Origin: Escherichia coli
GTDB lineage: Bacteria; Pseudomonadota; Gammaproteobacteria; Enterobacterales; Enterobacteriaceae
Reading direction: 5' to 3' (one strand)
DNA length: 64,000 nucleotides
Assembly (NCBI RefSeq): GCF_003018115.1
Contig: NZ_CP027457.1
How positions within the stretch are numbered: the first letter of the stretch is position 1; each line of letters opens with the position of its first letter. The notes under the pieces are model-generated. The model was not told where the DNA came from. It did not search any database and was given only the letters and a program-made list of their open reading frames with translations. Below are positions 43,109-43,132 of this stretch, in pieces. Made by a program: the position numbers and the translations under genes.

Positions 43109-43132
43109 AAGATGCATTTAAAATACATCTTA
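43109..43132. promoter_or_regulatory. NsrR operator upstream of ytfE
   Basis: AAGATGCATTT-A-AAATACATCTT inverted repeat (11-1-11) about 25 bp upstream of the ytfE start; matches the known NsrR box. Confidence 0.7.

Follow-up and report, generated by a model that had tools for sequence, protein, structure and literature searches.

The 23-bp, near-perfect palindrome that precedes ytfE in the window (the whole stretch of Escherichia coli DNA analysed, 64,000 nt in length) is almost certainly the operator of NsrR, an NO-sensing iron-sulfur repressor of the Rrf2 family, at the ytfE promoter, and its binding by NsrR in this strain is predicted. This assignment, which the initial annotation had already proposed, is borne out by a weight-matrix score far above background, by a 23-mer identical to that of K-12, by the canonical spacing to the gene, and by published repression and ChIP-seq results. 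The element sits in the 107-bp intergenic region between ytfF and ytfE, 59 bp downstream of the ytfF stop codon, and its last base lies 26 bp upstream of the ytfE ATG, so that it falls within the regulatory region of a gene published as NsrR-repressed. The NsrR operator of ytfE, unchanged from K-12, is an already known element. The coordinates of all features are collected in Table 1.

The operator has the architecture typical of NsrR sites, with two inverted half-sites separated by a spacer of exactly 1 bp, and within its surroundings it reads ...CCTTA AAGATGCATTT A AAATACATCTT ATATTATTAAGAATGAGGTATCAGCT ATG.... An inverted-repeat finder returned arms of 11 nt each with 1 nt between them and 91% complementarity (10/11 arm positions), which agrees with the earlier description of a near-perfect 11-1-11 palindrome in front of ytfE. 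The interval given with that description, 43109–43132, was correct at its start and one base too long at its end, the true end being 43131. The sole non-complementary position is 43125, where the plus strand carries A and a perfect palindrome would need G, and this is the degenerate y/r position of the published consensus gATGyAT-N5-ATrCATc (PMC1274295). The consensus thus accommodates both alleles, the minus-strand reading of the right half-site in the window being AAGATGTATTT. E. coli CFT073 has its ytfE site, AAGATGCATTTAAAATGCATCTT, at the same position and in front of the same gene; it shares 22 of 23 bases with the window and is perfectly symmetric, and the A for G at 43125 costs the window site 0.8 bit in the matrix described below (31.0 versus 30.2).

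Table 1. Features at and around the ytfE operator, in window coordinates.
Feature	Position	Strand	Basis or remark
NsrR operator, 11-1-11 inverted repeat AAGATGCATTT-A-AAATACATCTT	43109..43131	.	Repeat finder, matrix, K-12 identity, CFT073 ChIP-seq
Left half-site AAGATGCATTT, top-scoring 11-bp NsrR motif	43109..43119	+	PMC5320621 Table 2
Right half-site, minus-strand reading AAGATGTATTT	43121..43131	-	T replaces C at the consensus Y position (43125)
Candidate -10 hexamer TAAAAT, fully within the operator	43119..43124	+	Best -10 score in the region with a heuristic matrix; inferred
Alternative candidate -10 hexamer TATATT (TATCTT in K-12), sharing the operator's last base	43131..43136	+	Conservation and heuristic score; inferred
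Upstream block wAAGGGkTATAgC (43086-43098), NarL/NarP-like together with 43079-43085	43079..43098	.	Column counts; assignment inferred
ytfF, gene for a 324-aa DMT-family membrane protein	42076-43050		ORF list
Shine-Dalgarno GAGG of ytfE	43146..43149	+	9 nt before the ATG; conserved in 57-61 of 61 upstream regions among the matches listed
ytfE coding sequence, 220 aa, ScdA_N and hemerythrin domains	43158..43820	+	Pfam, NCBIfam, K-12 identity
Truncated-globin loci with a divergent Rrf2-family gene: L010, L015, L023, L024, L026, L027, L032, L033, L037, L044, L045, L055, L060, L061, L116			

The site was scored with a symmetrised log-odds matrix built from 25 11-1-11 sites of E. coli CFT073 (PMC5320621 Table 4), a training set from which the ytfE site and one duplicated site had been left out. 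It reached 30.2 bits, above all 25 training sites (12.3–26.4 bits), and the NsrR sites at other E. coli promoters are thus far more degenerate than that of ytfE, at 12–26 bits with the same matrix. The background of the matrix in the window had a mean of -23.7 and a standard deviation of 9.1, and in 200 random 64-kb sequences generated by a first-order Markov model the maximum score was 14.0 ± 2.2, with a highest value of 22.0, which places the operator about 7 standard deviations above the random-window maximum. The matrix scan found no second NsrR-like site above chance in the 64-kb window: the next best site, at 3016–3038 (14.3 bits), and those at 37309–37331 (14.0 bits) and 37545–37567 (12.2 bits) were considered as NsrR sites and rejected, as their scores are at the random level. 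When the window was searched for the perfect palindrome with as many as 3 mismatches tolerated, the operator itself was likewise the single match, and none of 100 dinucleotide-preserving shuffles of the window held any match at that threshold. These figures bear on the idea that the repeat is a chance palindrome with no sequence-specific function, for which it may be said that the intergenic region is AT-rich, that short palindromes are common in such DNA, and that other matrix matches in the window (3016–3038, 37309–37331) do lie at the random level. The shuffles and the score argue strongly against it, as do the presence of an identical or nearly identical site in about 5400 E. coli genomes and, among the matches listed, a fixed distance to ytfE in dozens of genera despite diverged flanks, and we regard a chance origin as extremely improbable.

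The gene downstream is intact. Its product is full length, with an N-terminal ScdA_N domain (PF04405, residues 5–58) and a C-terminal hemerythrin-like di-iron domain (PF01814, residues 77–216); it scores 415.6 bits against the NCBIfam YtfE equivalog NF008221 (cutoff 254), with residues 1–219 covered, and is identical to K-12 YtfE at 219 of 220 residues. The gene order cpdB, ytfH, qorB, ytfF, ytfE, cycA, fklB is that of the E. coli ytfE region. The description of ytfE as a repair gene in the initial annotation holds as the traditional label of YtfE, but the repair role itself is contested by a 2022 study, which argued that YtfE is an NO-forming nitrite reductase working with NsrR and Hcp (PMC9052748). 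Given a position 59 bp past the ytfF stop codon, and inverted repeats able to form hairpins, the element could also be thought to act as RNA, either as an intrinsic terminator of ytfF or as a hairpin in the ytfE 5' leader. The predicted fold is, however, only -4.0 kcal/mol (z = -0.94), with 38 of 200 shuffles folding as well; a terminator scan gave no G+C-rich stem with a T-run, Rfam gave no match at E ≤ 1, and the 1-nt spacer provides no loop, hence the full 11-bp arms cannot pair. An RNA element is accordingly a most improbable explanation of the repeat, and a DNA operator bound by NsrR remains the preferred one.

Comparison with the K-12 MG1655 promoter showed that the site is not displaced. 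The MG1655 operator, between ytfF (b4210) and ytfE (b4209), is a 23-mer identical to that of the window, it is likewise 26 bp from the ATG, and in both genomes ytfF lies upstream and cycA is convergent downstream. The intergenic regions are collinear, with no indels and four SNPs (43053, 43060, 43099 and 43134), all of them outside the operator. A 311-bp segment containing the operator had matches in 5416 of 5426 complete E. coli genomes, with identities of 97.4% for MG1655 and 100% for F9792. A 32-mer spanning the operator in the form seen in the window, the K-12-type A allele, is identical in 4128 of 5416 genomes (about 76%), and the symmetric G allele of the CFT073 type occurs in 925 of 5416 (about 17%). 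A more distant locus, that of E. coli GF4-3 (L003; NZ_CP053258.1), is 88% identical here; qorB is missing and, of ytfH, only a remnant is left between cpdB and ytfF, yet the operator is retained as AAGATGCATTTAATATGCATCTT at an unchanged distance from ytfE.

The motif gATGyAT-N5-ATrCATc was derived by Rodionov et al. (2005), who found it upstream of dnrN (ytfE) (PMC1274295). In CFT073, Mehta et al. (2015) reported an NsrR ChIP-seq peak between ytfE and ytfF; of the 27 11-1-11 sites predicted in that genome, AAGATGCATTTAAAATGCATCTT holds the top rank (PMC5320621 Table 4), ytfE also has its best PatSer site, AAGATGCATTT is entered twice at ytfE in Table 2 of the same paper, and ytfE was induced 69.6-fold by nitrate (PMC5320621). 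In a Salmonella nsrR mutant, ytfE mRNA was up 544-fold, a 2022 review describes E. coli ytfE as NsrR-repressed from a promoter with no recognisable Fur or FNR sites, and the PytfE/NsrR pair has been employed as an NO reporter in EHEC (PMC7336997). The mechanism that would follow is one of promoter occlusion: a dimer of holo-NsrR would occupy the two 11-bp half-sites with one winged-helix domain each and, being bound over the core promoter, would keep RNA polymerase off, until nitrosylation of the NsrR cluster by NO would release the protein and allow ytfE to be strongly induced.

Evidence from beyond E. coli came from a survey of one genome per species (GTDB) by exact scan for AAGATGCATTTNAAATNCATCTT, which gave at least 120 loci. 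As these loci were retrieved with the operator sequence, the conservation of its 21 specified bases is given by construction and is not evidence; independent evidence comes only from the positions left free, from the flanking DNA, from the spacing to the gene and from which genes lie nearby. Among the matches listed, a YtfE ortholog (59–100% identity) begins 23–44 bp after the site at 63 of 120 loci, and 46 of these 63 show exactly the 26-bp spacing of the window. The remaining 57 loci among the matches listed comprise 17 before hmp (flavohaemoglobin), 17 before a truncated globin gene, 11 before tehB and 1 before aox, together with 11 unassigned loci, of which some are at the edge of a locus and some belong to Firmicutes or Verrucomicrobia. 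The tehB loci are from Proteus, Morganella and Photorhabdus and the aox (alternative oxidase) locus is from Vibrio, again among the matches listed, and 15 of the 17 truncated-globin loci listed have a divergent gene for an Rrf2-family (NsrR-like) regulator. In Legionella and Methylobacter, the 23-mer is found between a truncated (group I-like) globin gene and the divergent Rrf2-family gene, apparently an autoregulated NsrR-globin cassette in which the operator does not differ from that of E. coli ytfE. The sites of hmp, hcp, ygbA, yeaR and tehA in E. coli, and the NsrR boxes before hmp, truncated globin genes, tehB and aox in other Gammaproteobacteria, share the 11-1-11 arrangement and the motif gATGyAT-N5-ATrCATc, and the same 23-mer, bar its centre base, precedes such genes in Pantoea, Kosakonia, Legionella, Methylobacter, Proteus, Morganella, Photorhabdus and Vibrio. 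In many genera the 23-mer is thus a mark of the recognised NsrR regulon and of nsrR-like genes, and the survey gives independent support for the NsrR assignment.

The same observations bear on whether the operator might serve another regulator, such as IscR, an Rrf2 paralogue, or a nitrate/nitrite response regulator, in place of NsrR. In favour of this, E. coli has further Rrf2 proteins, the 2022 review records de-repression of ytfE in fnr and fur mutants as well, and immediately upstream of the operator there is a NarL/NarP-like block. However, the sequence is the best NsrR motif, the CFT073 copy lies under an NsrR ChIP-seq peak, and the review sees no Fur or FNR sites in the promoter and holds the fnr and fur effects to be indirect. 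The position of the 23-mer between globin and divergent Rrf2 genes in Legionella and Methylobacter is the classic autoregulated layout, and the NarL/NarP-like block is separate from the operator, upstream of 43099. A different regulator is therefore very unlikely, and NsrR is retained.

The survey was also informative on the anatomy of the promoter. The centre base of the operator (43120), which was free in the search, is A in all 61 distinct ytfE upstream regions among the matches listed when read in the orientation of ytfE. In the same set, any of A, T, C or G can stand there when the gene that follows the 23-mer is hmp, a globin gene or tehB. The constant A at ytfE loci suggests a second constraint, namely a -10 hexamer embedded in the operator, which would be TAAAAT. 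Just beyond the operator and outside the search pattern, positions 43132–43136 (ATATT) are conserved in 48–61 of the 61 distinct ytfE upstream regions among the matches listed, and these form most of an alternative -10 candidate, TATATT. A strict sigma-70 consensus scan of 42900–43300 found no promoter; a heuristic hexamer matrix with approximate frequencies returned several weak combinations in which both -10 candidates had poor -35 partners, giving no choice between TAAAAT and TATATT; and no transcription start for ytfE was found in the supplementary tables of genome-wide TSS studies. Bodenmiller and Spiro reportedly noted in 2006 an overlap between the repeat and the -10 element at the promoters of ytfE, hmp and ygbA. 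Conservation, position and this report together point to an operator that overlaps the core promoter of ytfE, and since both -10 candidates lie within the operator or touch it, the operator would cover the region that RNA polymerase has to occupy whichever of them is used.

One of the four differences from K-12 falls in the alternative hexamer. Position 43134 is A here (TATATT) and C in K-12 and most E. coli (TATCTT); the form seen in the window, scored as an identical 42-mer, occurs in 629 of 5416 complete E. coli genomes, and A is the majority state in other Enterobacteriaceae (51 of 61 among the matches listed). If TATATT, which is close to the -10 consensus, is the real -10 element, this minority E. 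coli allele would raise the basal or induced expression of ytfE.

Further upstream, the block listed in Table 1 has been kept, while the DNA around it diverged, across 61 distinct ytfE upstream regions of many Enterobacterales among the matches listed. The 7-2-7 consensus for NarL and NarP is TACYYMT-NN-AKRRGTA, and against this consensus the window block, TGCTACG-TA-AGGGTTA, agrees at 10 of 14 positions, a weak match that is better in several other genera. With TAAAAT as the -10 element, the centre of the block would be near -44.5, a typical activating position for NarL/NarP. A candidate NarP site was predicted at dnrN (ytfE) in enterobacteria by Rodionov et al. (2005) (PMC1274295), and the block is probably that site. 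If it is functional, PytfE would be a nitrate/nitrite-activated, NsrR-repressed promoter of the yeaR type. The joint reading, in which the change from C to A at 43134 raises ytfE expression and the block is a functional NarL/NarP site, is speculative and we consider it rather unlikely.

The initial annotation also took the regulatory architecture to be intact in this strain. This stands for the cis elements and the ytfE reading frame; the whole circuit extends beyond the window, which ends before nsrR. It could be imagined, then, that an intact operator belongs to a broken circuit, with nsrR absent or defective elsewhere in the genome, as the gene is outside the 64-kb window, which ends inside yjfM. 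The nearest complete genome, that of F9792, speaks against this, as its nsrR is annotated and intact, lying between purA and rnr at a distance of about 27 kb from ytfE, and nsrR is to our knowledge a core E. coli gene. We infer that the strain carries a working nsrR, and a broken circuit is highly unlikely. F9792 is 99.6% identical to the window over 38970–64000, and as the identity is only 99.6% over these 25 kb, the window strain is related to F9792 and not the same. Identity to F9792 is uneven, at 98.2–98.3% over 1–24648 and 99.4–99.6% over 24671–64000, with short unaligned gaps at about 16222–16360 and at 24649–24670; recombination mosaicism or variable repeat elements may account for this unevenness.

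A separate feature of the region downstream of ytfE is a copy of IS609 (IS200/IS605 family) at 47197–48844, which interrupts the TetR-family gene ytfA, adjoining ytfB. Its reading frames are tnpB/insQ (47197–48405, minus strand) and tnpA (48413–48844, plus strand). Matches to at least 80% of window 46900–49300, which holds IS609 and its flanks, are present in about 1699 complete E. coli genomes; among the matches listed, O55:H7 strain RM12579 is 99.3% identical over that interval and has the insertion at the same site. The K-12 copy of IS609 is located elsewhere, near ydcO.

For practical use, the operator can serve as a positive control for motif scans of this window. Mildly useful by-products of the comparison are the E. 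coli frequencies of the two operator alleles, A and G at the Y/R position, and a footprint of the promoter across genera. If true, the effect of 43134 and the NarL/NarP site would refine an already known circuit only slightly. The finding itself, which carries little weight beyond annotation, is that the strain keeps the canonical cis element coupling ytfE expression to NO via NsrR.
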